DNA of 11,010 nucleotides from a virus (taxonomy: Duplodnaviria > Heunggongvirae > Uroviricota > Caudoviricetes). This document shows positions 1 to 11,010 of this stretch, piece after piece. The notes under the pieces were generated by a model, which was given only the letters and a program-made list of their open reading frames with translations, did not search any database and was not told the origin of the DNA. Location: IMG/VR virus record IMGVR_UViG_2681813236_000014, positions 1 through 11,010 of that record; one strand, 5' to 3'. Made by a program: the position numbers and the translations under genes. Each line of letters starts with the position of its first letter. Within the stretch, counting starts at the first letter, position 1.

Positions 1-37
1 GATAATAATTCTTAGTATTAATTCGGCAATCTGATTC

Positions 38-72
38 TACTCCCCCCCAGTACCTGATACTACCCCCCAGTA
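38..72. promoter_or_regulatory. Two RcnR operator sites in the rcnA-rcnR intergenic region (TACT-C7-AGTA at 38-52; TACT-A-C6-AGTA at 58-72)
   Basis: Seen directly: tactcccccccagta and tactaccccccagta. The reverse complement is the TACT-G6/7-AGTA motif known as the RcnR binding site; located immediately upstream of rcnR. Confidence 0.7.
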
Positions 73-120
73 GATTAATAGTGCTATGATTTTTCATATT
101 CTTGTTAACCAGGTGTTGCC

Positions 121-393
121 ATGTCTCATACAATCCGTGATAAACAGAAACTGAAAGCGCGTGCCAGTAAGATTCAGGGCCAGGTCGTGGCGCTCAAGAA
201 AATGCTCGACGAGCCGCACGAATGCGCTGCAGTTTTACAACAGATTGCTGCTATCCGTGGCGCGGTAAACGGTCTGATGCGGGAAGTGATTAAAGGTCAT
301 CTGACGGAACACATCGTTCACCAGGGGGATGAGCTAAAACGTGAAGAAGATCTGGATGTCGTTCTGAAGGTGCTGGATTCATATATCAAATAA
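121..393 (+). CDS. rcnR: RcnR, Ni/Co-responsive transcriptional repressor (RcnR/CsoR/FrmR family), 90 aa
   Basis: Translation [90 protein letters not shown] matches E. coli RcnR as I recall it; the operator motifs upstream are consistent. Confidence 0.92.
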
Positions 394-482
394 TTTATTA
401 ACGCGATTGTAAAACTGCCGTTTTTCCTCGTTTACAACGCGTGCGCTGGACATTACCATCCTCCTCTGCGATTTATCATCGC

Positions 483-534
483 AACCAAACGACTCGGGGT
501 GCCCTTCTGCGTGAAGGCTGAGAAATACCCGTAT
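483..534 (+). promoter_or_regulatory. 5' portion of the thiM TPP (THI-box) riboswitch, truncated by island insertion
   Basis: aaccaaacgactcggggtgcccttctgcgtgaaggctgagaaatacccgtat matches the start of the E. coli thiM leader/aptamer as recalled. The native continuation (CACCUGAUCUGGAUAAUGCCAGCG...) is absent; unrelated AT/GT-rich sequence follows from 535. Confidence 0.7.
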
Positions 535-535
535 T

Positions 536-722
536 TTCTCATTTAGTGTTTTTTGTGGTTCGGGGTTGCTTGTGGTTGTTTATGTATGTATTTGATAAAC
601 AATAAATTATCCTGTTTTCTTGTTTGTTGTTGTTCGTCGTTGTTCGTAGAGCTTCAACAAAATGTGTGGTCAGTTGTGTGGTCAGTTTTTTGAGGCTGGA
701 GGACTGAAAAGAGGATCTGATA
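536..722. repeat. att-proximal arm with short tandem direct repeats (TGTGTGGTCAGT x2 at 663-686; GTTGTTCGT x2 at ~628-646; TTGTGGTT x2 near 555-585)
   Basis: Seen directly. Lies between the insertion junction and the integrase start; this is the typical location of integrase arm-type or IHF sites and of the int promoter. Confidence 0.4.
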
Positions 723-1943
723 GTGGGAAAAGCACTAAACAAACTGAGCGATTCGACGTTAAAAAAATTGGCGGCTGTCCAGGCAGAAAAAGAGCGTTTT
801 TACTCCGACGGGGGCGGGCTGGAGATTAAACACTCAAAGGGCGGCAAATTAACCTGGTATTTCCGGTACCGAACGGGAGGCCGTGAGGTTGCCGCAGAGC
901 GGTTAAAGCTGGGGGCTTACCCTGAATTGTCGCTGAAAGCCGCAAGGGAAAAACGCACACTGTGCCGGGCATGGCTGGCTGAGGGTAAAAACCCCCGTTA
1001 TGAGTTGTGCGCCACAGTACAGGAAGCACTAAAACCCGTTACGGTGAAGGAAGCGATTAACTACTGGCTGGAGGAATACGCGAAGGATAACCGCAAAGAT
1101 TACATAAAGCTGGTGCAGCGTATGGATAAGCACATCATTTGCCATATTGGGGCAATTCCCCTTGATAAGTGTGATACAAGGCAGTGGATCGCATGTTTTG
1201 ACCGCGTACGAAAAAAAGCACCAGTAGCAGCGGGCCATGTCATGCAGACATGCAAACAGGCGCTAAAGTTTTGCCGCAGGCGGCGCTACGCGTTTAGCAA
1301 CGCCCTGGACGATTTGATCGTTACTGATGTGGGTAAGAGAGCAGAAATCCGCGAGAGAGTGCACAGCAACAGCGAACTAAAAGAAATTCTACGCGCTATT
1401 GATGGTGATGTGTTCGCTCCCTATTACAGTGCGTTAATGCGCTTGTTAATTGTGTTCGGGTGCAGAACGGCAGAGATCAGACTTTCAGAGATCAAAGAAT
1501 GGGACCTGAAAGAAATGTTGTGGACAGTGCCAAAAGAGCACAGCAAAACGAAGGTAACAATATTCCGACCTATTCCTGATGGTATTTTGCCGTTCATTCA
1601 GAAGCTGGTGGAGCAAAACGCACACACTGGGTTATTACTCGGCGAACTGAAAAAAGATACCACGGTGGCGCAATATGGACGAAATGCGCATAAGCGGCTT
1701 AAGCAGGAACACTGGACGCTGCATGATTTCCGACACACGTTTACAACTATGCTGAATGATTTAGGTGTCGATCCGCATATCGTGGAGCACATCACAGCGC
1801 ATCAGATGCCAGGTCAGCAAAAAACCTATAACCATTCACGCTATTTGCAGGCGAAACGGGACGCACTGAATCTATGGGTTGAGCGTCTTGATATGATTGC
1901 AGGATATAATGAAAATATTGTGATATTGAGAGGGATACAATGA
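723..1943 (+). CDS. int: Tyrosine recombinase, P4-type integrase (406 aa, GTG start)
   Basis: N-terminal arm-binding pattern (DGGGLEIKHSKGGKLTWYFRYR); catalytic-region motifs GCRTAEI, HDFRHT and a C-terminal Tyr (KTYNHS); RBS AAGAGGA 7 nt upstream; adjacent to the insertion junction. Confidence 0.9.
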   Translation: MGKALNKLSDSTLKKLAAVQAEKERFYSDGGGLEIKHSKGGKLTWYFRYRTGGREVAAERLKLGAYPELSLKAAREKRTLCRAWLAEGKNPRYELCATVQEALKPVTVKEAINYWLEEYAKDNRKDYIKLVQRMDKHIICHIGAIPLDKCDTRQWIACFDRVRKKAPVAAGHVMQTCKQALKFCRRRRYAFSNALDDLIVTDVGKRAEIRERVHSNSELKEILRAIDGDVFAPYYSALMRLLIVFGCRTAEIRLSEIKEWDLKEMLWTVPKEHSKTKVTIFRPIPDGILPFIQKLVEQNAHTGLLLGELKKDTTVAQYGRNAHKRLKQEHWTLHDFRHTFTTMLNDLGVDPHIVEHITAHQMPGQQKTYNHSRYLQAKRDALNLWVERLDMIAGYNENIVILRGIQ

Positions 1944-2794
1944 CGAAAAAAGTAAATAGTAAAAAAGATTTACCAAAGTCATTTGATTTAGGCAAATATG
2001 ATTGCCTAGAAAACTTGTCGGATAAAGATCTATTTCGCCAATTATATTGGCGACAAGATGATTTAACAATGAAACATTCTGAGATGCCTGAATATGGATT
2101 TATGTTTGGTGCTGAATACCCGTTGCATAATAATTACGGGGATCCATTTGGAGAGCTGAAAGAAGACGATTGGTTTTGTGATAAACAAAAAGAATATGAC
2201 CATAAAGTGCAACCGAAGTTAATTGAGCTAAGTTATGATGATGGAATTAAACCTGTAACAAGATTTGATATATCAATGATTAATAAACTGACTGCGGAAA
2301 GAGGATATTGGAAGGATAAACCAATCATCATAGATAATGAGATGGTTGGAAGTTTAATATCAGAAGATAATGGGATGTTTTGGGCTGTGATGCGTGAACC
2401 AGTGAATCTCCTTTCTGATACATTAGATAATATGCTTGTTTCTGTTGACTTACTACATAACAGAGATGATGAGTTGATTGAAGCGTTTACAAAACTATTA
2501 CCAAAATGGCGTAGTGAACTTTCAATTGTTGAGCCAGACAAACCAATTGCAGGAAGTTGGGAGAGCATACGACGTAAAATTATTGATTATAAGATAATCC
2601 CATTAATTGACTTATTATCTTGGGAGTTGTCTACAGATAGAAAAATTTCATTAGGGGTGCTTGCCGTATCTTTGTATCCTGATGGTGAAAAGGACACCTT
2701 TGCTATTGCTCAGACTGTAAAACCCTTCTTAGAAAAAATAATGCGCAGCGATTCTTTAGAAAAAATAAGAAAAATTTTATCTAATGAAAATTAA
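1940..2794 (+). CDS. Hypothetical protein, AT-rich cargo gene (284 aa), function unknown
   Basis: Long ORF with start overlapping the int stop (ATGA), RBS AGAGGGA. Markedly lower GC than flanking int and alpA. No motif I can assign. Confidence 0.7.
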   Translation: MTKKVNSKKDLPKSFDLGKYDCLENLSDKDLFRQLYWRQDDLTMKHSEMPEYGFMFGAEYPLHNNYGDPFGELKEDDWFCDKQKEYDHKVQPKLIELSYDDGIKPVTRFDISMINKLTAERGYWKDKPIIIDNEMVGSLISEDNGMFWAVMREPVNLLSDTLDNMLVSVDLLHNRDDELIEAFTKLLPKWRSELSIVEPDKPIAGSWESIRRKIIDYKIIPLIDLLSWELSTDRKISLGVLAVSLYPDGEKDTFAIAQTVKPFLEKIMRSDSLEKIRKILSNEN

Positions 2795-2897
2795 TCATGG
2801 AGAACGATAAATTAGAATAAAGTTTATTTTTCCAATATTGCACCAACTGCTATGGTAAATAAGATGCCCTTGTTCGGTTACGTTCGAGGGTGTTTTT

Positions 2898-3122
2898 ATG
2901 AATCAAAATACACAATTTCAATCACTAACAGATCGCGTAATTCGTGAGGATGAATGTCGTAAGTTAACAGGCGTCAGCCGTACTACACGCTACGAACTGG
3001 AGAAGAAAGGGGGCTTTCCGTCTCGCCGTAATCTTGGGGGGCGTTCTGTAGGCTGGTTGCTTTCCGAAGTTATGGACTGGGTGCAAAGCCGTGACCGCGT
3101 TAATTCAGGTAAGGCAGCGTAA
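2898..3122 (+). CDS. alpA: AlpA-family transcriptional regulator / excisionase-like (74 aa)
   Basis: HTH-containing small protein (LTGVSRTTRYELEKKGGFPSRRNLGGRSVGWLLSEVMDWVQS) typical of AlpA family; RBS GAGGG upstream; standard position after int in P4-like and PICI elements. Confidence 0.8.
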   Translation: MNQNTQFQSLTDRVIREDECRKLTGVSRTTRYELEKKGGFPSRRNLGGRSVGWLLSEVMDWVQSRDRVNSGKAA

Positions 3123-3140
3123 AGGGGAGCATATGACATA

Positions 3141-3168
3141 TAAAACAAAGGCGACCGGGGGCGGTCGC
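3141..3168 (-). terminator. Putative intrinsic terminator for the leftward regulator operon
   Basis: Perfect 8-bp GC-rich stem GGCGACCG/CGGTCGCC (3149-3156, 3161-3168) with 4-nt loop. On the minus strand it is followed by a U-rich run (complement of aaaacaaa, 3141-3148); no T-run on the plus strand. Confidence 0.5.
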
Positions 3169-3236
3169 CAATGGATACACACTAAACTTGAACGCATCGC
3201 CAACAATGCCACATTTGCGGCTGGTGGGCAATGTGA

Positions 3237-3416
3237 TCAGTCAGATTTGGTTCGTTCCAAGGTTTGCAACGAGAGCTTTTTCCTGTGCTCTTTAAGGAAT
3301 TTCTCAAGAGCAAACGAACAAGGTGCGAATCTTTCTGATTCATGTTCATGCGCTATATTTTTGCGTCGTCTCTTACGAGTTGGTGATGGTGTTTTGGTTG
3401 ATTCTGTGTCGCTCAT
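3237..3416 (-). CDS. Possible small basic protein (59 aa), below the ORF-track cutoff
   Basis: Manual translation of the minus strand gives MSDTESTKTPSPTRKRRRKNIAHEHESERFAPCSFALEKFLKEHRKKLSLQTLERTKSD with an AGGA RBS 6 nt upstream; sits between the RHH gene and the minus-strand terminator. Hand-derived, so coordinates could be off by a few nt. Confidence 0.3.
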   Translation of the reverse strand: MSDTESTKTPSPTRKRRRKNIAHEHESERFAPCSFALEKFLKEHRKKLSLQTLERTKSD

Positions 3417-3473
3417 GGTGCTGTCCTGTAAAGCAATGCGCCTGCGTTCCTCAAACTATGGCGCTGATAGTGG

Positions 3474-3779
3474 CTATTCCTGCTCTTTGACCTTGCGTCG
3501 CTGGAGTTCTTCACGCGCGACGGTGACGAGTTGCCCGATCTCCTCGGCGGCTTTGACTCCGATTTTTTCCACCTGCGCTAGGGCATCGAGCGAAGAAACC
3601 AGGAGGTTTTCTCCGCTTCCTTCTGCCTGGCGGCGGGCGATTTCACCGCGCATGGCGGTTACTATGAATCCGGCGTTGCTTTCACCGTCCAGTTTTACGG
3701 ATTCCATGCCTTCAATAACATCATGCGGGATCCGAGCTGTCAGTGATTGTGATTTTGCGTTTTTTGAACCTGTAGCCAT
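3474..3779 (-). CDS. Putative ribbon-helix-helix (CopG/Arc-like) DNA-binding regulator, 101 aa; candidate island repressor
   Basis: Strong RBS GAGAGGA 6 nt before the ATG at 3779 (the ORF-track start at 3794 is a TTG without RBS). N-terminus SLTARIPHDVIEGMESV fits a beta-strand/helix RHH pattern. Divergent from the pri operon across an operator-rich region. Confidence 0.6.
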   Translation of the reverse strand: MATGSKNAKSQSLTARIPHDVIEGMESVKLDGESNAGFIVTAMRGEIARRQAEGSGENLLVSSLDALAQVEKIGVKAAEEIGQLVTVAREELQRRKVKEQE

Positions 3780-3800
3780 CTGTAATCCTCTCAATGAAAG

Positions 3801-3877
3801 TGTAAGACAATATACACATAAAAAGTCTTACATAAAAGCATTGACATGTAAGCCACCTATAAATAAAGTTACTTACA
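3801..3877. promoter_or_regulatory. Divergent promoter/operator region: two TGTAAG-N19/20-CTTACA inverted-repeat operators plus rightward promoter (-35 TTGACA 3841-3846, -10 TAAAGT 3864-3869)
   Basis: Seen directly: TGTAAG at 3801-3806 and 3847-3852; CTTACA at 3827-3832 and 3872-3877. The second pair overlaps the promoter elements. Confidence 0.5.
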
Positions 3878-3975
3878 CCTTGTTAATGCAAGGTGCAGAA
3901 ACGACGAAACCCCGCACTGTAGGAGCAGTAACGGGGCTTCTAACCACCAACGATAGCAAGATTATCGAGGCAGCT

Positions 3976-4179
3976 ATGAGAAATCATACCATACACCCGC
4001 AAGGGCGGGACTCGTACAACCTGAATAAATACATCTGGCGTTTTATCGCCCTGAGCACCGCACAACCGCGCGTGATTCACATCGTGGCCACCAGCGAACA
4101 GGAAGCACGCCAGCAATCCCCGGCTGGCTGCGTGATGGTATTCGCCGCCCGTATTCGTCAGGGGGTGTGCCATGCCTGA
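3976..4179 (+). CDS. Small protein (67 aa), first gene of the rightward operon; possibly Icd-like cell-division-inhibitor family (weak recollection)
   Basis: First in-frame ATG after the promoter, RBS GAGG; MRNHTIHPQGRDSYNLNKYIWRFIALSTAQPRVIHIVATSEQEARQQSPAGCVMVFAARIRQGVCHA. The rest of the 362-aa ORF-track frame upstream is antisense to the RHH gene and not credible. Confidence 0.5.
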   Translation: MRNHTIHPQGRDSYNLNKYIWRFIALSTAQPRVIHIVATSEQEARQQSPAGCVMVFAARIRQGVCHA

Positions 4180-4492
4180 TATGTCAAATTACCAGTACCT
4201 GATTAATCCGCATTTTAACTGTGAGCATGATATTGCTAAAAAGATTTATTCCGCTGCGGATGGGGCTACTGACAATATATCAATGGCTGTTGCGTCAATT
4301 GGTAGCCTGATGTGGCATGCGTCAGAAAATGAGGACTATGACGAAAAGGCCATGCGCATTGATATGGGGAATATCGGTTTGTTACTGGCAATGCTTGGAC
4401 ATTTTGATATTTCGTTACGGTGCACCATTGAAAATGCCACAGATGCATTAAATGCTATAAAGAAAGCGAATACTGATTCAAATCGGGGATAA
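4172..4492 (+). CDS. Hypothetical protein (106 aa)
   Basis: Start overlaps the upstream stop (ATGCCTGA), RBS AGGGGG; in operon with the primase; no recognisable motif. Confidence 0.55.
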   Translation: MPDMSNYQYLINPHFNCEHDIAKKIYSAADGATDNISMAVASIGSLMWHASENEDYDEKAMRIDMGNIGLLLAMLGHFDISLRCTIENATDALNAIKKANTDSNRG

Positions 4493-4498
4493 ATAATC

Positions 4499-4798
4499 AT
4501 GAGAACGTATTTATCTGGCTTGACTGCCAGCGGTTATGCACACCCCCAAATTATCCCCGGCGCTATTTATCTGGATAAGAACGGTAACAGAGTAACGGTA
4601 AAAGAACTGATGTTTGACCGTGTGTATTTTATCCGTGATGGCTATTCATTTCTTAGTTCGCTGAACGTGGAGATCTTTATTAGCAGATTCAGGCGGGAAA
4701 TCCCGCTTTCCAGAAATAACCATGTGTCATGTATGGATGTTGATAAAAAACTACAGGAACTAAAAAACATGATTGCCGCGTGGAGAGAGCAGAAATGA
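4499..4798 (+). CDS. Hypothetical protein (99 aa)
   Basis: Stop overlaps the primase ATG at 4795 (ATGA), suggesting translational coupling; no recognisable motif. Confidence 0.55.
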   Translation: MRTYLSGLTASGYAHPQIIPGAIYLDKNGNRVTVKELMFDRVYFIRDGYSFLSSLNVEIFISRFRREIPLSRNNHVSCMDVDKKLQELKNMIAAWREQK

Positions 4799-6612
4799 AA
4801 AAAGCGCCAAATTTAAAACACCAGCCGCGTGACAAAATGACGGAAGTCATCATTTTTGCGGGTAGTGATGCGTGGGCACATGCGAAACAGTGGCAGGAAC
4901 AGGACGGGCGACTGGCTGGCGATAACGTGCCACCTGTCTGGCTTGGAGAGCAACAACTTGCCGAACTGGACAACCTGCAAATCGTACCGGACGGACGCTA
5001 TCGCGTGCGTCTCTATCAGGCGGGGTTATTGCGGCCGGGGCTTGTTAATACCATCGGGCAGAAACTGGCAGTGGCAGGTGTCAGGGATGCTGATTATTAC
5101 CCTGAAGGAATGCACAGCCAGAAACGGGAGAACTGGCGCGAATATCTGGAACGTGAACGGGCAGAGCAGGCGGAAAAGAAAAAGGTAGTTGAACTGCCTG
5201 TAAAGAAAAAAGAGCGGGTAAAAGACGATAACGCGTCATCACTGGCGCTTAACCAGATGGGAGCAAGTCAACGCGGCGAAGTTCTCCTGGCACATTATGG
5301 CGGTGAACTGGCGATTCATGCTGACTCTGACACTGTTCACCATTACAACGGCGTTGTATGGGAGCCAGTACAGGATAAAGAATTACAGCGAGCTATGGCA
5401 CAGATTTTCATTGATGCGGAGATCAGCTATTCGCAGAACGCCATTAAATCGGCGGTCGATACCATGAAGTTAAGTTTGCCTGTAATGGGGAATACAGCCC
5501 GTAACCTGATTGGATTCAGTAACGGGGTATTTGATACCAGAACAGGTAATTTTCGGGAGCATAACAAAAACGACTGGTTGTTAATTGCCAGTGAATTACC
5601 TTTCAGCCCACCAGCAGAGGGGGAAACGCTGGCAACACATGCGCCGAATTTCTGGAAGTGGTTACGCCGTTCGGTGGCTGAGAATGACCGCAAGGCGGAT
5701 CGCGTACTGGCTGCATTATTCATGGTGCTGGCGAACCGGTACGACTGGCAGTTATTCATTGAGGTAACAGGTCCAGGGGGAAGTGGTAAAAGCGTGATGG
5801 CGGAGATTTGCACCATGCTGGCGGGTAAGGCCAACACAGTATCGGCAAGCATGAAGGCGCTGGAAGATGCAAGGGAACGCGCGTTAGTGGTTGGCTTTTC
5901 GCTGATTATCATGCCGGATATGACCCGCTACGCTGGTGATGGGGCAGGGATTAAGGCTATTACAGGCGGTGACAAGGTGGCAATTGACCCGAAACACAAA
6001 GCCCCCTACTCAACGCGTATTCCGGCAGTAGTGCTGGCGGTTAACAATAACGCCATGTCATTCAGTGACCGCAGCGGGGGGATCTCACGTCGTCGGGTGA
6101 TATTCAATTTTTCGGAAGTTGTACCGGAGAACGAACGTGATCCAATGCTGGCGGAAAAAATAGAAGGTGAGCTGGCGGTAGTGATTCGCCATCTGCTTAC
6201 ACGGTTTGCTGACCAGGACGAAGCCAGACGCCTGTTATATGAGCAGCAGAAATCTGAAGAAGCACTGGCGATAAAGCGAGAGGGGGATTCGCTGGTGGAC
6301 TTCTGCGGCTATCTCATGGCGTCGGTAATGTGTGATGGCCTGTTAGTGGGTAATGCTGAAATTGTGCCATTCAGCCCACGCAGGTATCTCTATCATGCCT
6401 ATCTGGCTTATATGAGGGCACATGGGTTTGGTAAACCTGTAACACTGACGCGCTTCGGTAAAGATATGCCGGGGGCAATGGCGGAATATGGCAGGGAGTA
6501 TATGAAACGGAAAACGAAGCACGGTTTGCGTTCAAACGTGACACTGACGGAGGAATCAGAAGACTGGATGCCATCATGTGTATCGGTCACTAATGACGAT
6601 AGCAAAAATTAA
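4795..6612 (+). CDS. P4-family primase/helicase (replication initiator, pri-rep), ~605 aa
   Basis: Walker A GPGGSGKS (5769-5792) in the C-terminal helicase-like domain; large N-terminal domain; iteron origin immediately downstream. Start chosen at the ATG at 4795 (RBS GGAGAG, ATGA overlap) rather than the GTG at 4780. Confidence 0.88.
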   Translation: MKKAPNLKHQPRDKMTEVIIFAGSDAWAHAKQWQEQDGRLAGDNVPPVWLGEQQLAELDNLQIVPDGRYRVRLYQAGLLRPGLVNTIGQKLAVAGVRDADYYPEGMHSQKRENWREYLERERAEQAEKKKVVELPVKKKERVKDDNASSLALNQMGASQRGEVLLAHYGGELAIHADSDTVHHYNGVVWEPVQDKELQRAMAQIFIDAEISYSQNAIKSAVDTMKLSLPVMGNTARNLIGFSNGVFDTRTGNFREHNKNDWLLIASELPFSPPAEGETLATHAPNFWKWLRRSVAENDRKADRVLAALFMVLANRYDWQLFIEVTGPGGSGKSVMAEICTMLAGKANTVSASMKALEDARERALVVGFSLIIMPDMTRYAGDGAGIKAITGGDKVAIDPKHKAPYSTRIPAVVLAVNNNAMSFSDRSGGISRRRVIFNFSEVVPENERDPMLAEKIEGELAVVIRHLLTRFADQDEARRLLYEQQKSEEALAIKREGDSLVDFCGYLMASVMCDGLLVGNAEIVPFSPRRYLYHAYLAYMRAHGFGKPVTLTRFGKDMPGAMAEYGREYMKRKTKHGLRSNVTLTEESEDWMPSCVSVTNDDSKN

Positions 6613-6620
6613 ACTTATGG

Positions 6621-6850
6621 AATAACTGTTCACCACTGTTCACCCCGTCATAAATGTCTTTTATATCATTATATTATAGGGTGAACAGTTATTTATGAAC
6701 TGTTCACCAAACTATTCACTGTTCACCTTTTTGATTGTTTATTGAGCTGCAAGGGTGAACAGTGGTGAACAGTTGGTGAATAGTTTTTGTGAAACTGTTC
6801 ACCCCTTAACATTATGAATTGAAAGAGAAAATAGCAAAAGGTGAACACGT
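6621..6850. repeat. Iteron cluster / putative origin of replication
   Basis: About 10 copies of the 10-mer ACTGTTCACC in both orientations: direct at 6625, 6635, 6699, 6718, 6794; inverted GGTGAACAGT at 6680, 6754, 6764, plus degenerate copies at 6775 and 6840. An AT-rich stretch lies between them (6645-6679). Confidence 0.75.
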
Positions 6851-6955
6851 GAAGGGTTAAAATACAAAAATTTTATTACAGCATGGAATATTAAGTTTTA
6901 GCCGACAGGTAGTTAGCCATAAGAGGATATTTGTCGCTTAGTATTACGTACATAA

Positions 6956-6980
6956 CAGCAAACACTTTTCTGGTTTGCTG
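6956..6980 (-). terminator. Possible terminator hairpin downstream of the HEPN-like gene
   Basis: 8-bp stem CAGCAAAC/GTTTGCTG with 9-nt loop; flanking U-run on the minus strand is weak. Confidence 0.3.
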
Positions 6981-7003
6981 GATTAATAGATAAGCGCTAT
7001 AAG

Positions 7004-7717
7004 TTAGTTAGTTTTGAAAAATTTATTGAATAACTCTAAGCTTTCAGGATGTATATATTGAGTAGGGTAACTGATACGTTGTGAGCGTCCAATTTTTATT
7101 GTGTTTTTTTTCGTCTTCCCAAAAAATAGATTCTTCCATGTTAAAATGTTTCCGTGATTATATTTATTGTCTTTTAATCGCTTTTCCAAATAACCATCTG
7201 TGATTTTATATTTATGTGGCGGTACATTCCTTGAGTGCTCAATTTTCCGTAATTCTACTTCTAGCATATCTATTAGCTCACCTTTAGGGGTTTTGAGTTG
7301 ATAATTTAGTAAGCGGCAGTATCTGCGTAATTCCCATACAGTTCTATCTAATGTAATAATTTCAAACCCATTAGTATACATGACTTTTTGGAAGTATCTA
7401 TTTGGTCCTTGGTCATTTAGATACTCTATGAAATATATGCTTTTATCACTCAGATCTAGTTTAATATATGGAATATCATTAATTTTTTTAATTCCTGCAA
7501 CAAGATCATGTCCAATATTTTTAACAGGGATTCTATTAAAAATAAGAATGCATTTTATATATTTTTCAATTGCTTGTTGAGACATCCATAAAAATTGGAA
7601 AGGAAGATTGTTTTTAAAGCAAATACGAGCAGTTAGATAATCTTGATCAGCCATGTCTCTGAAAGATCTTTTAGCCGCATTATTCAGAAAAATTTTTTGA
7701 GTATCAGTAAGTTCCAT
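7004..7717 (-). CDS. AT-rich cargo protein with HEPN-like N-terminal domain (237 aa); candidate RNase-type defense/abortive-infection effector
   Basis: RBS AGGAAG; N-terminal helices with HEPN-like pattern (AAKRSFRDMADQDYLTARI...QQAIEKYIKCIL...NIGHDLVAGIKKI); roughly 30% GC by eye versus ~50% in flanks; opposite strand to surrounding island genes. Confidence 0.7.
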   Translation of the reverse strand: MELTDTQKIFLNNAAKRSFRDMADQDYLTARICFKNNLPFQFLWMSQQAIEKYIKCILIFNRIPVKNIGHDLVAGIKKINDIPYIKLDLSDKSIYFIEYLNDQGPNRYFQKVMYTNGFEIITLDRTVWELRRYCRLLNYQLKTPKGELIDMLEVELRKIEHSRNVPPHKYKITDGYLEKRLKDNKYNHGNILTWKNLFFGKTKKNTIKIGRSQRISYPTQYIHPESLELFNKFFKTN

Positions 7718-7863
7718 TCTCTTCCTGTGTCAGTGGTTGCAAGTGATTAGAAGATACAAGACATGATAAAGATTATAAATCGATTTTTATGGTAAAAATA
7801 TGTTTATTTACCACTTTTGTAGATCGATACTATGTATAGTTTAGTCAGTCAGAGGAAGTTGTT

Positions 7864-8073
7864 GTGAGTTGTATTAATGACCTGAACACAGGCGATATCA
7901 GAGGCGGTTCCGTTCATCTGGATGCGCAGACCGTTATGCGCCTTAAGCAGTACAGGATCGACCATATAAATCATCATCCTGACCAACCATTACCAGGTGT
8001 GGCGCAGATTGTCAGGCATGCCGTAAACGCCTGGCTTAATCAGAGTGGTTTTGCATCGGAGAGTGAGCAATGA
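7864..8073 (+). CDS. Hypothetical small protein (69 aa, GTG start) preceding the capsid gene
   Basis: RBS AGAGGAAG 5 nt before the GTG; stop overlaps the next ATG (ATGA); function not assignable. Confidence 0.5.
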   Translation: MSCINDLNTGDIRGGSVHLDAQTVMRLKQYRIDHINHHPDQPLPGVAQIVRHAVNAWLNQSGFASESEQ

Positions 8074-9983
8074 ATCACTGGTACACCATTAAGGCGGCGG
8101 ATGTTCGCGGAGCGGCGGATATATCTATCTATGAGGAGATTGGCGGCTTCGGTGTTACTGCAAAGCAGTTCGCGGAAGACCTGAAAGCCCTTGGCGATGT
8201 TTCACATATCAATCTGAGGATCCATTCACCAGGTGGTGATGTGTTTGAAGGCATCGCCATCTATAACCTGCTACGGAATCATCCGGCAGACATTACGGTT
8301 TATATCGATGGTGTTGCGGCTTCAATGGCTTCGGTTGTCGCAATGGCTGGCGATCGTGTTGTTATGCCGGAGAACGCCATGATGATGATCCATAAGCCGT
8401 GGGGTATCTCTGGCGGAAATGCTGGCGATATGCGTGATTATGCTGATTTGCTGGATAAGGTGGAAACCGTGTTAATCCCTGCTTATGCCAGAAAAACGGG
8501 CAAATCAGCACAGGAAATTACCGCCATGCTGGAGGATGAAACCTGGATGGATGGGAAAGAATGCCTTAAGCACGGTTTTGCTGATGAATTGTTGCCATCC
8601 GTCAGAGCAATGGCGCGAATTGAATCGAAACGCACAGGAGATTTTTTACATATGCCGGAAACCATTAAAGGAATGATTACACCGCCACAGGGAGCGGCAA
8701 ATATTGCTGGTAATGAACAGAAGCGCATCAATGGAATAAGTGAAGTGTTTAGCTTGTTCGGCAGTCGTTACGACGGGATCAAAATGGCGTGTCTGGAAGA
8801 TGCATCATGTACACCGGAAATGGCCCGTGAAAAGCTGTTGAACGAGCTGGGGCGCGAGTCCACGCCATCCAATAAAAATACCTCGCCTCATATCTATGCC
8901 GGAAACGGAAACATAACAGGTGATGCAATTCGTCAGGGGCTTTATTCCCGTCTTGGGTATGAACGCCCTGAACGAGGCAACCCTTACGCGATGATGAGCC
9001 TTTTTGAAATGGCCCAGGCATCACTGGTTGATCGTGGTATCACTGTGAGCGGTTTTATTAATCGCTCGCAGGTTGTTAATGCGGCTTTTACACACAGCAG
9101 CAGCGATTTTTCTCATATTCTGGCTGGTGGCGCTGAGAAATCAGTACTGAAAGGCTGGCAGGACAGCGGCGAAACGTTCCAGAAATGGACGCGTACCGGT
9201 TCGCTTTCAAACTTTCATGAAGCAAAGCGCGTTGGTCTGAATGGTTTTTCAAAGCTGGATAAAGTACCGGAAGGCGCGGAATATAAATACATCACCACTA
9301 GCGATAAAGGTGTACCTATTGCGCTGGCCACGTACGGGAATATTTTTTCCGTTACCCGTCAGGCCATTATCAACGATGACCTGACCCAGTTAACTACAAT
9401 CCCCATGGCGATGGGACGCGCAGCTGCCAGAACAGTTGGCAATCTGGTTTATCTCCTGTTAACCAGCAACGGCAAGTTTACGGATGGTAAAGCGTTATTC
9501 CATGCCGATCATAAAAATCTTATTGCGAAGGATATGGACATGGAGGGGCTTAACGAAGCCCGTAAGCTGATGCGCCTCCAGGAAGACGCTAACGGCGATT
9601 CGCTGAATATTACCCCCGCATTTGTCCTGGTCCCCGCCGCGCTGGAGTCTGCCGCACATCGCGCCATTCTGTCATCGTCATCACTCTTTCCGGTTGATGG
9701 CGTGGGCACTATCAATCAGAACCCCGGCATCATTAACGTGGTGAAAGATATGGCGGAGGTAATCGTTGAGCCACGTCTTGATAAAGCCAATAACAAGGAG
9801 TGGTATGTGGCAGCGGCGAAGGGTATGGACACGATAGAGGTCGCTTATCTTGATGGTATTGATACGCCATATCTTGAGGAGCAGGAGGGCTTTACTGTTG
9901 ATGGCGTCGCCTGGAAGGTGCGCATAGATGCAGGTGTCGCGGCCCTCGACTATCGCGGATTACTGAAATCGAGTGGAGCATGA
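8070..9983 (+). CDS. Prohead protease (ClpP/S14-like) fused to major capsid protein (637 aa)
   Basis: N-terminus has ClpP-like motifs (IHSPGGDV, GVAASMASVVAMAGD, MMIHKPWG). C-terminal ~400 aa resemble phage major head proteins (DGKALFHADHKN recalls Mu gpT-like DGKPFFAADHP). Strong RBS; intrinsic terminator immediately downstream. Confidence 0.85.
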   Translation: MNHWYTIKAADVRGAADISIYEEIGGFGVTAKQFAEDLKALGDVSHINLRIHSPGGDVFEGIAIYNLLRNHPADITVYIDGVAASMASVVAMAGDRVVMPENAMMMIHKPWGISGGNAGDMRDYADLLDKVETVLIPAYARKTGKSAQEITAMLEDETWMDGKECLKHGFADELLPSVRAMARIESKRTGDFLHMPETIKGMITPPQGAANIAGNEQKRINGISEVFSLFGSRYDGIKMACLEDASCTPEMAREKLLNELGRESTPSNKNTSPHIYAGNGNITGDAIRQGLYSRLGYERPERGNPYAMMSLFEMAQASLVDRGITVSGFINRSQVVNAAFTHSSSDFSHILAGGAEKSVLKGWQDSGETFQKWTRTGSLSNFHEAKRVGLNGFSKLDKVPEGAEYKYITTSDKGVPIALATYGNIFSVTRQAIINDDLTQLTTIPMAMGRAAARTVGNLVYLLLTSNGKFTDGKALFHADHKNLIAKDMDMEGLNEARKLMRLQEDANGDSLNITPAFVLVPAALESAAHRAILSSSSLFPVDGVGTINQNPGIINVVKDMAEVIVEPRLDKANNKEWYVAAAKGMDTIEVAYLDGIDTPYLEEQEGFTVDGVAWKVRIDAGVAALDYRGLLKSSGA

Positions 9984-9989
9984 CAACAA

Positions 9990-10013
9990 GGGCGGCGATA
10001 GCCGCCTTTTTTT
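9990..10013 (+). terminator. Rho-independent terminator after the capsid gene
   Basis: Stem GGCGGC/GCCGCC (9991-9996, 10001-10006), loop GATA, followed by T7 (10007-10013). Confidence 0.7.
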
Positions 10014-10061
10014 ACGGGTCCTCCCGGTGGGGTGGTCTGCCACGGGGCGGGAGCGGCGCGG
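10014..10061. other. Lambda-like cos site (cosQ/cosN-homologous segment); candidate 12-nt cohesive end GGGCGGGAGCGG at 10045-10056
   Basis: ACGGGTCCTCCCGGTG...ACGGGGCGGGAGCGGCGCGG aligns with the recalled lambda junction ACGGGTCCTTTCCGGTGATCCGACAGGTTACG|GGGCGGCGACCT|CGCGGG; the terS start lies ~196 bp downstream, as Nu1 does in lambda. Confidence 0.6.
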
Positions 10062-10240
10062 AAAAAGGCTAGTTTTTGCATTTTCATTCGTCATCATCAT
10101 CTTCATATTGTATTGAATTTTAAGCATTTTTATTTTTGGTATGTTAATTTTACTTGTTTTATGCTCAACATATAGCGCATTTTTTGACCTCTTCTGAAAG
10201 TTGTTCGCAAGATGCATGTTTAAAACATTCTGGAGCGGGT

Positions 10241-10726
10241 ATGGATCGAGAACTGAAAAATCTGATGCTGAACATTAATCAACTGGCGGCGATAGCGGGA
10301 ATATGTCGTCAGACTGCGGCGGCAAGGCTGAAAAACATCCAGCCAGCCGGAGGGCATGACAAGCTGAAACTCTATCGGGTGACTGACATTCTGACCTGTT
10401 TTCTTGATCTTCCCGTTCCGGCATCACTGGAAGAAATGGAGCCACATGACCGTAAGGCCTGGTATCAGTCCGAACGTGAACGCCTCAAGTTCGAACAGGA
10501 AACGGCGCAACTCATACCCGCCGATGATGTGCGAAAAGAGATGGCTATATGGGGGGAAATCGTAAGCGAGGAACTGGCAAAACTCCCCAATATTCTGGCA
10601 CGTGATGCCGGGCTTAAACCGATGGCAGTAAACAGAGTGCAGTCAATTATTGACGATTTGTGTAATCAGATTATCAGCCGGATGGTAAAAAATGACGTAG
10701 TGAATGAGGTCGCAAAACAGGCATGA
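10241..10726 (+). CDS. Small terminase subunit, Nu1-like (161 aa)
   Basis: RBS GGAG 7 nt before the ATG at 10241 (the ORF-track start at 10154 lies inside the cos region and lacks an RBS). N-terminal HTH (LNINQLAAIAGICRQTAAARLKN) and overall layout resemble lambda Nu1; immediately downstream of cos. Confidence 0.72.
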   Translation: MDRELKNLMLNINQLAAIAGICRQTAAARLKNIQPAGGHDKLKLYRVTDILTCFLDLPVPASLEEMEPHDRKAWYQSERERLKFEQETAQLIPADDVRKEMAIWGEIVSEELAKLPNILARDAGLKPMAVNRVQSIIDDLCNQIISRMVKNDVVNEVAKQA

Positions 10727-11010
10727 TAATGACCGAATCTGAAATACTGCGATTAATCCGCTGTGCTGGTGGAATCAGCCAGTTGGCTGACGAACAGGCC
10801 GCGCAGCCGGATACAGTCACCGCTGAAAATTACGCGCGTGTGGTGGCTGAGGTGATGCGCCGTGACGGTATTGAGCTTAACGGCGTGGATATGCGCAACA
10901 TACGAACCAGAGTTCTTGAGTTGCTGGCATACCGTCGCCGTTCTCAACAACGGAGGGAGAGCGCGAAAAATACTTACCAGTGGAGGAAGCCGGAGCACTT
11001 ACGGCGGTAA
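10723..11010 (+). CDS. Hypothetical protein (95 aa) downstream of terS
   Basis: Start overlaps the terS stop (ATGA); stop at the window end; no recognisable motif. Confidence 0.45.
   Translation: MIMTESEILRLIRCAGGISQLADEQAAQPDTVTAENYARVVAEVMRRDGIELNGVDMRNIRTRVLELLAYRRRSQQRRESAKNTYQWRKPEHLRR

Follow-up and report, generated by a model that had tools for sequence, protein, structure and literature searches.

Islands of the EARL (ROD21-like) type carry a conserved, unexplained gene of 843–876 bp beside the gene for their AlpA-type recombination directionality factor (RDF) (PMC6035254). Genes reported in such a position include ORF28 of ICEKp258.2 (KPNJ2_RS09320), which encodes a 287-aa protein annotated as DUF6387 and precedes AlpA at the island end remote from int (PMC10763509), and SEN1999 of Salmonella Enteritidis ROD21, a hypothetical protein beside the RDF (PMC3198454). 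Here we describe a DUF6387 family gene at positions 1940–2794 of an 11,010-nt stretch of viral DNA (IMG/VR record IMGVR_UViG_2681813236_000014, positions 1 to 11,010; the whole stretch is called the window below), which lies between int and alpA of an island predicted to be a capsid-forming satellite of the phage-inducible chromosomal island (PICI) type. Like the EARL companion gene, it is ~850 bp long, stands directly 5′ of a co-oriented AlpA-family RDF gene, and is found at the att-proximal edge of an island with a P4-type integrase. In the EARL islands, by contrast, int is found at the other end, on the opposite strand and uncoupled from the companion gene, and transfer is by conjugation, not in capsids. 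The RefSeq annotation of KPNJ2_RS09320, together with size and position, links the window gene to the EARL companion as probably the same kind of gene.

The part of the window that contains the gene reads as follows.

723–1943, + strand: P4-type tyrosine integrase gene (int), the first cistron (Pfam Arm-DNA-bind_3 and Phage_integrase).
1928–1943, + strand: Shine-Dalgarno sequence GAGAGGGA and ATGA stop/start overlap, read from the sequence.
1940–2794, + strand: DUF6387 family gene, 284 aa, 855 bp (Pfam PF19924, AlphaFold model, GC content).
2898–3122, + strand: alpA, AlpA-family activator or RDF, the constant downstream neighbour (Pfam Phage_AlpA, E = 4.8e-16).

The open reading frame (ORF) at 1940–2794 is a real gene and is correctly delimited. 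In shuffles of positions 1801–3000 (n = 2000), the longest open frame had a mean of 60 codons and a maximum of 128, so the ORF is not a product of chance, and RefSeq annotates identical or near-identical copies of the 284-aa protein in 50 of 5426 complete E. coli genomes. An earlier note, made from the sequence alone, had described a 4-nt ATGA overlap with the int stop and a good ribosome binding site, and direct reading bears this out: GAGAGGGA at 1928–1935 is a good Shine-Dalgarno sequence, and the ATG (1940–1942) shares ATGA with the int TGA (1941–1943). The gene is also, as the note had stated, clearly lower in GC than its neighbours (0.335, with a GC3 of 0.263, versus 0.483 for int, 0.484 for alpA and 0.453 for the whole window). 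The note's statement that the gene lacks a recognisable motif proved wrong, because the protein gives a near full-length match to the Pfam family DUF6387 (PF19924, 109.2 bits versus a gathering cut-off of 28.9, E = 3.3e-31), with residues 3–272 aligning to positions 2–252 of 258. RefSeq names the identical gene "DUF6387 family protein". Homologues formed 57 clusters in a word-indexed search and ~1259 clusters at 50% identity in a profile search.

Conservation was read from a 187-sequence family alignment and profile. A conserved N-terminal motif at ~11–40 (L11, P12, F15, Y20 and R38) is followed by a weakly conserved centre (~41–165) that is rich in insertions and deletions, and by a conserved helical C-terminal domain (~166–270, with D176, R191, K213, Y217, P221, D224, W228, P247, G249, T259 and P262). 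Sequence and alignment revealed no Cys/His cluster, no nucleotide-binding, nuclease or other catalytic motif, and no hydrophobic or transmembrane segment. The protein has a pI of ~5 (5.5 for the C-terminal domain), and its AlphaFold model is all-alpha (pLDDT 87.6). The remote homology and structure searches suggested in the earlier note found the family but matched no known fold or function. The AlphaFold model had no match in the PDB or among viral structures, and searches of the PDB by sequence returned nothing with either a single sequence or a profile. NCBIfam gave no functional match, the sole PHROGs match was phrog_23422, itself without an assigned function, and a search of PADLOC-DB v2.0 returned 0 families at E <= 1. 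No helix-turn-helix (HTH) or other DNA-binding domain was recognised by Pfam and NCBIfam, and profile–profile comparison with AlpA/HTH_17 proteins gave an hhalign probability of 0.2%. DUF6387 is the sole domain in ten of the longest family members, a search with the C-terminal-domain profile returned fragments only, and DUF6387 is mentioned in 2 papers of the literature searched, neither of which assigns it a function.

The place between int and alpA is polymorphic. Among loci sampled by AlpA (~90% identical), 21 had an empty slot, with a non-coding int–alpA gap of ~430 bp, and the others held DUF6387 alleles or an unrelated family, here called family B. These three states were seen among islands with 86–100% identical AlpA or 96% identical Int, and islands at rcnR/thiM with 96%-identical Int held either a 29%-identical DUF6387 protein or family B. 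Of the complete E. coli genomes, 50 had the window allele and 3 a divergent one, while the two alleles of family B occurred in ~10 and ~50. DUF6387 alleles are shuffled relative to Int (rho 0.33 between the identities): where Int was at least 95% identical, DUF6387 ranged from 29 to 100%, and in one comparison Int was 50% identical yet DUF6387 70%. Near-identical DUF6387 alleles accompany differing packaging and replication modules. A set of 30 distinct genes was drawn from E. coli, Klebsiella, Enterobacter, Yersinia, Providencia, Tenebrionibacter and metagenomic or viral contigs; all 30 alleles were AT-richer than their own int (median GC 0.366 versus 0.498). Two loci contain tandem, distinct DUF6387 paralogues between int and alpA (L007, 6007–7684, and L096, 1619–3330; Providencia and a metagenome contig). 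The survey of int-proximal slots that the earlier note had proposed thus found gene replacement at the same position in related islands. Its description of a cargo gene in an int-proximal accessory slot stands as far as the slot is concerned, which may be empty or hold DUF6387 alleles or family B, but the gene does not roam freely and is tied to its AlpA-adjacent position.

The 5′ end is where PICIs have been described as carrying immune and accessory genes (PMC11364771, citing its ref. 12). In the prototype EcCICFT073, reporter fusions put ORF3 beside alpA (PMC6092414), from which we infer that alpA is ORF2 and directly follows int. Two further slot genes were considered and set aside: EcCIMP1_002, from another PICI, is small and unrelated and showed no phenotype in UV rescue, and YfjH of CP4-57, encoded on the opposite strand between intA and alpA, was not used as a homologue.

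Since the gene is dispensable, replaceable, shuffled, AT-rich, in places duplicated and variable-centred, we read it as an accessory module. Our preferred reading, held tentatively, is that DUF6387 is a non-enzymatic, binding-type accessory factor for interference or immunity that is made together with Int in the resident island. The soluble, acidic, all-alpha protein would be the product of the second, translationally coupled cistron of the int operon, transcribed from the int promoter and possibly by read-through from thiM. A terminator at the alpA start codon would insulate this operon from the alpA induction circuit. The gene would be an optional, exchangeable module of the att/int-proximal (5′) variable region. 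The conserved N- and C-terminal parts would serve as a scaffold and the hypervariable centre as a recognition surface, which would bind a protein of an incoming phage or rival mobile element stoichiometrically, with no catalysis. We infer the time of expression, the action by binding, and the phage or mobile-element target.

Tai-type binding systems, which belong to the PICI 5′ accessory genes, offer a close parallel: they too are small single genes in the variable region of a PICI-type satellite and are PADLOC negative, and by analogy with them an action of DUF6387 by binding rather than catalysis is plausible. Binding-type systems such as Tai are missed by PADLOC and DefenseFinder (PMC11364771). 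Tai differs from DUF6387 in lying downstream of pri in PICIs and also in phage moron loci and P4 hotspots. The same acidic (pI ~5), non-enzymatic protein with its hypervariable centre and tandem paralogues could instead be an anti-defence or establishment factor, co-made with Int on entry to neutralise a host restriction or defence component; its expression is tied to int, which is required on entry, and the family is present both in elements that move by phage capsids and in those that move by conjugation. We consider this improbable, because a gene that stands downstream of a host promoter when integrated would be constitutive and would weaken the host's own defences, and because the protein shows no similarity to known anti-restriction folds.

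The coupling of the gene to int, and its separation from alpA, involve three further features.

431–536, + strand: host thiM promoter-like site (431–459) and the 5′ part of the thiM thiamine pyrophosphate (TPP) riboswitch aptamer, up to the island junction at ~537.
2798–2834, + strand: AT-rich stem-loop right after the DUF6387 stop (RNA fold).
2861–2897, + strand: terminator-like hairpin ending at the alpA ATG (folds and covariation).

The 4-nt overlap with the int stop was found in 28 of the 30 distinct DUF6387 genes, and family B occupants of the slot likewise keep the ATGA overlap. RNA folding of 2790–2915 gave a z of −2.64. The stem-loop at 2798–2834 was not conserved in other loci. In the second hairpin, a GC stem (2866–2872 pairing with 2885–2891) is flanked by A and U tracts on either side, and the alpA Shine-Dalgarno sequence GAGGG (2886–2890) lies inside the 3′ arm. 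Across 13 distinct loci, 97.4% of cells pair versus 35–64% with partners slid, and at 4 pairs both partners have changed in a compensatory way. This hairpin also stands 5′ of alpA in L002, L003, L005, L006, L014, L017 and others, independent of the slot occupant, and is absent from slot-less EcCICFT073-like PICIs. Taken together, the overlap and the conserved hairpin support, at the level of sequence, an int–DUF6387 bicistron that would be closed by a terminator abutting alpA. A −10-like TAnnAT abuts the 5′ arm of the hairpin, so transcripts from there would be without the full hairpin, which tentatively suggests a promoter-embedded insulator.

The earlier note had raised the possibility that the gene is expressed with int, including from the thiM promoter, and the geometry fits: the promoter-like TTTACA-17-TACCAT of thiM (431–459) faces int, and no terminator-like site was found on the + strand between the junction and int. 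Two other promoter matches were noted in this region. The best sigma-70-like match, TTGTTA-17-TATAAT (10/12), lies on the − strand at 2069–2041, where it faces int from within the 5′ part of the DUF6387 gene, antisense to it, and may be a spurious AT-rich promoter or give an antisense transcript. An internal promoter for the gene at 1888–1916 (9/12 consensus) was not relied on; shuffled controls hold more such matches than the region.

Conserved coupling would also be expected of an integrase accessory factor, made 1:1 with Int and modulating integration, excision or att-site choice. The ATGA overlap in 28/30 genes, kept even after a swap of the occupant, speaks for such a role, as does the 406-aa Int lineage, in which the slot was never seen empty. 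The latter observation is also a first point against our preferred reading. We nevertheless give an integrase factor little probability, since Int of 96% identity occurs with DUF6387 of 29% and Int of 50% with DUF6387 of 70%, non-homologous proteins fill the same place, and Pasteurellaceae and EARL islands keep the gene with alpA, far from int. Integrase-cofactor and anti-defence roles are both less likely than a binding factor or a regulator.

The gene keeps closely to alpA, even where int lies elsewhere. The order int–DUF6387–alpA recurs in about 45 related loci. An AlpA/HTH_17 gene directly followed DUF6387 in 8/8 genome loci (a genome-contig scan with narrow peptide patterns, which gave 8 loci only), 30/34 IMG/VR loci, 6/6 Klebsiella places and 3/4 informative remote representatives. 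A P4-type int usually precedes the gene; in Haemophilus and Avibacterium (Pasteurellaceae) the DUF6387–alpA pair is intact and int lies at the island's far end. Conservation at this position, which the earlier note had named as an observation that would speak against cargo, is thus considerable, with an AlpA-adjacent place across elements, but it is not strict.

Several further observations weigh against a binding-type immunity factor. The gene is nearly confined to the place just 5′ of an AlpA-type gene across capsid-forming PICIs (cf-PICIs), P4-like elements, Pasteurellaceae islands, a Neptunomonas element and conjugative EARL islands, and this fidelity suggests a link to the life cycle of the element. 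Tai-like defence genes, by comparison, roam across several hotspots and element types (PMC11364771). DUF6387 was present in 2 of 50,697 phage records, neither of them a real phage genome, and in 4 plasmid records, one of which is itself a cf-PICI in the form of a 16,971-bp circle. The PADLOC search gave no match, and the literature search gave no DUF6387 phenotype. The label of defence gene, which the earlier note had offered, gains nothing specific from these results, with no effector or catalytic domain in the protein, a negative PADLOC search and a near-absence from phages and plasmids. The circular record (L100, CP018459.1), a Klebsiella pneumoniae "plasmid", carries int, DUF6387 and a DNA-binding protein in that order together with capsid, terminase and head–tail genes, one gene being annotated as tape measure; it is most likely an excised cf-PICI that was assembled as a replicon.

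These observations bring in a life-cycle regulator, that is, a sensor or anti-activator of the AlpA switch that would be Stl-like in function, made constitutively with Int, and would keep alpA (or AlpA/Int activity) off, with the centre as the receptor for the trigger. The near-invariant place just 5′ of co-oriented AlpA-type genes in very different elements, even with int elsewhere, argues for it, as do the conserved ends and variable middle of the protein and the conserved RDF companion named in the EARL literature (PMC6035254). It is attractive because it is uncertain whether Gram-negative PICIs possess a global repressor at all, and because by 2018 no phage-encoded inducer of alpA had been identified (PMC6092414). 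The Stl/Rpr repressors of Gram-positive PICIs resemble DUF6387 in that they adjoin int, are transcribed with it and are highly divergent, and in being modular with a variable part, which in Stl serves for sensing (general knowledge, PMC6092414). Stl has a recognisable N-terminal HTH, whereas Pfam finds none in the DUF6387 protein, and for Gram-negative PICIs, unlike the Stl-governed ones, the reported controlling factor is an activator, AlpA. The case for a regulator is weakened because Pfam and NCBIfam recognise no HTH or DNA-binding domain, and because the AlpA core is ~90–100% identical whether the slot holds DUF6387, holds family B or is empty. The C-terminal domain is acidic (pI 5.5), the protein has no homology to AlpA, and helper phages still induce alpA in the EcCICFT073-type PICI, where alpA would directly follow int (PMC6092414). 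On balance we regard a regulator of this kind as the nearest rival of our preferred reading and only a little less likely than it.

Family B bears on the same question. Examples are WP_158181256.1 and WP_000775337.1, the latter from an O157:H7 island which we take to be EcCIEDL933-like. Family B proteins resemble DUF6387 in occupying the same slot with an ATGA overlap to int, in being AT-rich, acidic and 257–264 aa long, in their conserved ends and variable centre, and in preceding the same hairpin before alpA. They differ in showing no detectable homology (hhalign probability 0.1%), and in their predicted fold (AlphaFold), which runs from a beta-alpha-alpha-beta N-terminus through a beta-rich middle to a helical C-terminus. 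That N-terminus, together with a 14-bp palindrome downstream of the gene, counts in favour of a regulator; homology of the N-terminus to AlpA/HTH_17 was unsupported by hhalign or Pfam, and only its predicted secondary structure is suggestive. The palindrome, GTGTGATATCACAC, is perfect and follows the family B genes (L003, ~8028–8041, with equivalents in L005, L065 and L066), ~20 nt 5′ of a TAGAAT box and the alpA hairpin, and is a candidate operator. A more specific proposal, which we hold to be more doubtful still, is that DUF6387, and family B by non-homologous replacement, form a control layer, an anti-activator that would hold AlpA off and be released when the centre binds a helper-phage or trigger protein.

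The window begins in the E. coli chromosome, with rcnR at 121–393 (NCBIfam equivalog). The rcnR–thiM intergenic region is identical to that of E. coli K-12 up to ...GAGAAATACCCGTAT (~536) and diverges after it. The island junction at ~537 falls inside the thiM TPP aptamer, the 5′ half of which now points at int. An Rfam scan gave no TPP riboswitch match, because the aptamer is truncated by the island; Rfam matches to MIR821 and a lncRNA (long non-coding RNA) were spurious. At an identity of at least 90%, int was present in 76 E. coli genomes, and five annotated examples all lay at rcnR/thiM. Upstream of int there are two exact tandem copies of GTGTGGTCAGTT (664–687, ~40 nt 5′ of the int start) and T/G-rich TGTTCGT repeats (~630–650), which may be arm-type integrase sites or regulatory sites.

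The DUF6387 gene is separated from alpA, on the same strand, by 103 nt. To the right of alpA lie an Icd-like gene, a DUF4222 gene and a D5-type primase, followed by an AT-rich HEPN-like gene (− strand), a ClpP–capsid fusion, and a DUF1441/small-terminase (TerS) gene (modules were called on window proteins with Pfam and PHROG). This gene set is as in the cf-PICI preprint (doi 10.1101/2022.09.08.507074). From these calls the host element is assigned to the capsid-forming PICI-type satellites; no tail genes are in view, and the right island end lies beyond the window. A 362-aa ORF called mechanically at 3091–4179 is probably not a gene; its Icd-like similarity is confined to the last ~65 codons, and in SMS-3-5 this interval is annotated with a short Icd-like gene, with YlcI/YnfO and, on the opposite strand, with a small hypothetical gene. 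Downstream of the primase, iterons of the GGTGAACAG type in inverted arrangement with an AT-rich core between them (6653–6832), where the spurious MIR821 match also falls, look like a PICI replication origin. The HEPN-like gene (7004–7717, − strand, 237 aa, GC 0.298) gave a marginal HEPN match and was PADLOC negative; homologues were found in L027 and L037, and Klebsiella locus L018 has a 237-aa ORF without a Pfam match in the same place. Its position corresponds to the "downstream of pri" accessory region of PICIs (He et al. 2024). The island of E. coli SMS-3-5 (L001) shares the int–DUF6387–alpA–primase left arm of the window at >=99.6%, and its packaging module is wholly different, with separate HK97-type capsid, protease, portal, HNH, and TerS/TerL genes. 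By this comparison the two halves of these islands appear to be mosaic.

DUF6387 was already catalogued, and the EARL literature notes an unexplained conserved neighbour of the RDF. The conserved coupling to int, the covarying terminator, the three-state slot, and the shuffling of alleles against Int were not found stated in the literature searched. DUF6387 is a large family (~1259 clusters) with a confidently predicted fold that is unmatched by solved structures, and it is the habitual partner of AlpA in two medically relevant classes of island, the capsid-forming satellites found in E. coli and Klebsiella, and pathogenicity islands of the ROD21/ICEKp258.2 kind. A gene in this place, between int and alpA, is a candidate for helper-phage sensing in Gram-negative PICIs or for control of excision in EARL islands. 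If DUF6387 acts as a control layer on AlpA, it would account for helper specificity among Gram-negative cf-PICIs and for the regulation of excision in EARL islands. If it is instead a binding-type immunity protein, as we tentatively prefer, it would add a widespread family of defence proteins that current finders overlook.

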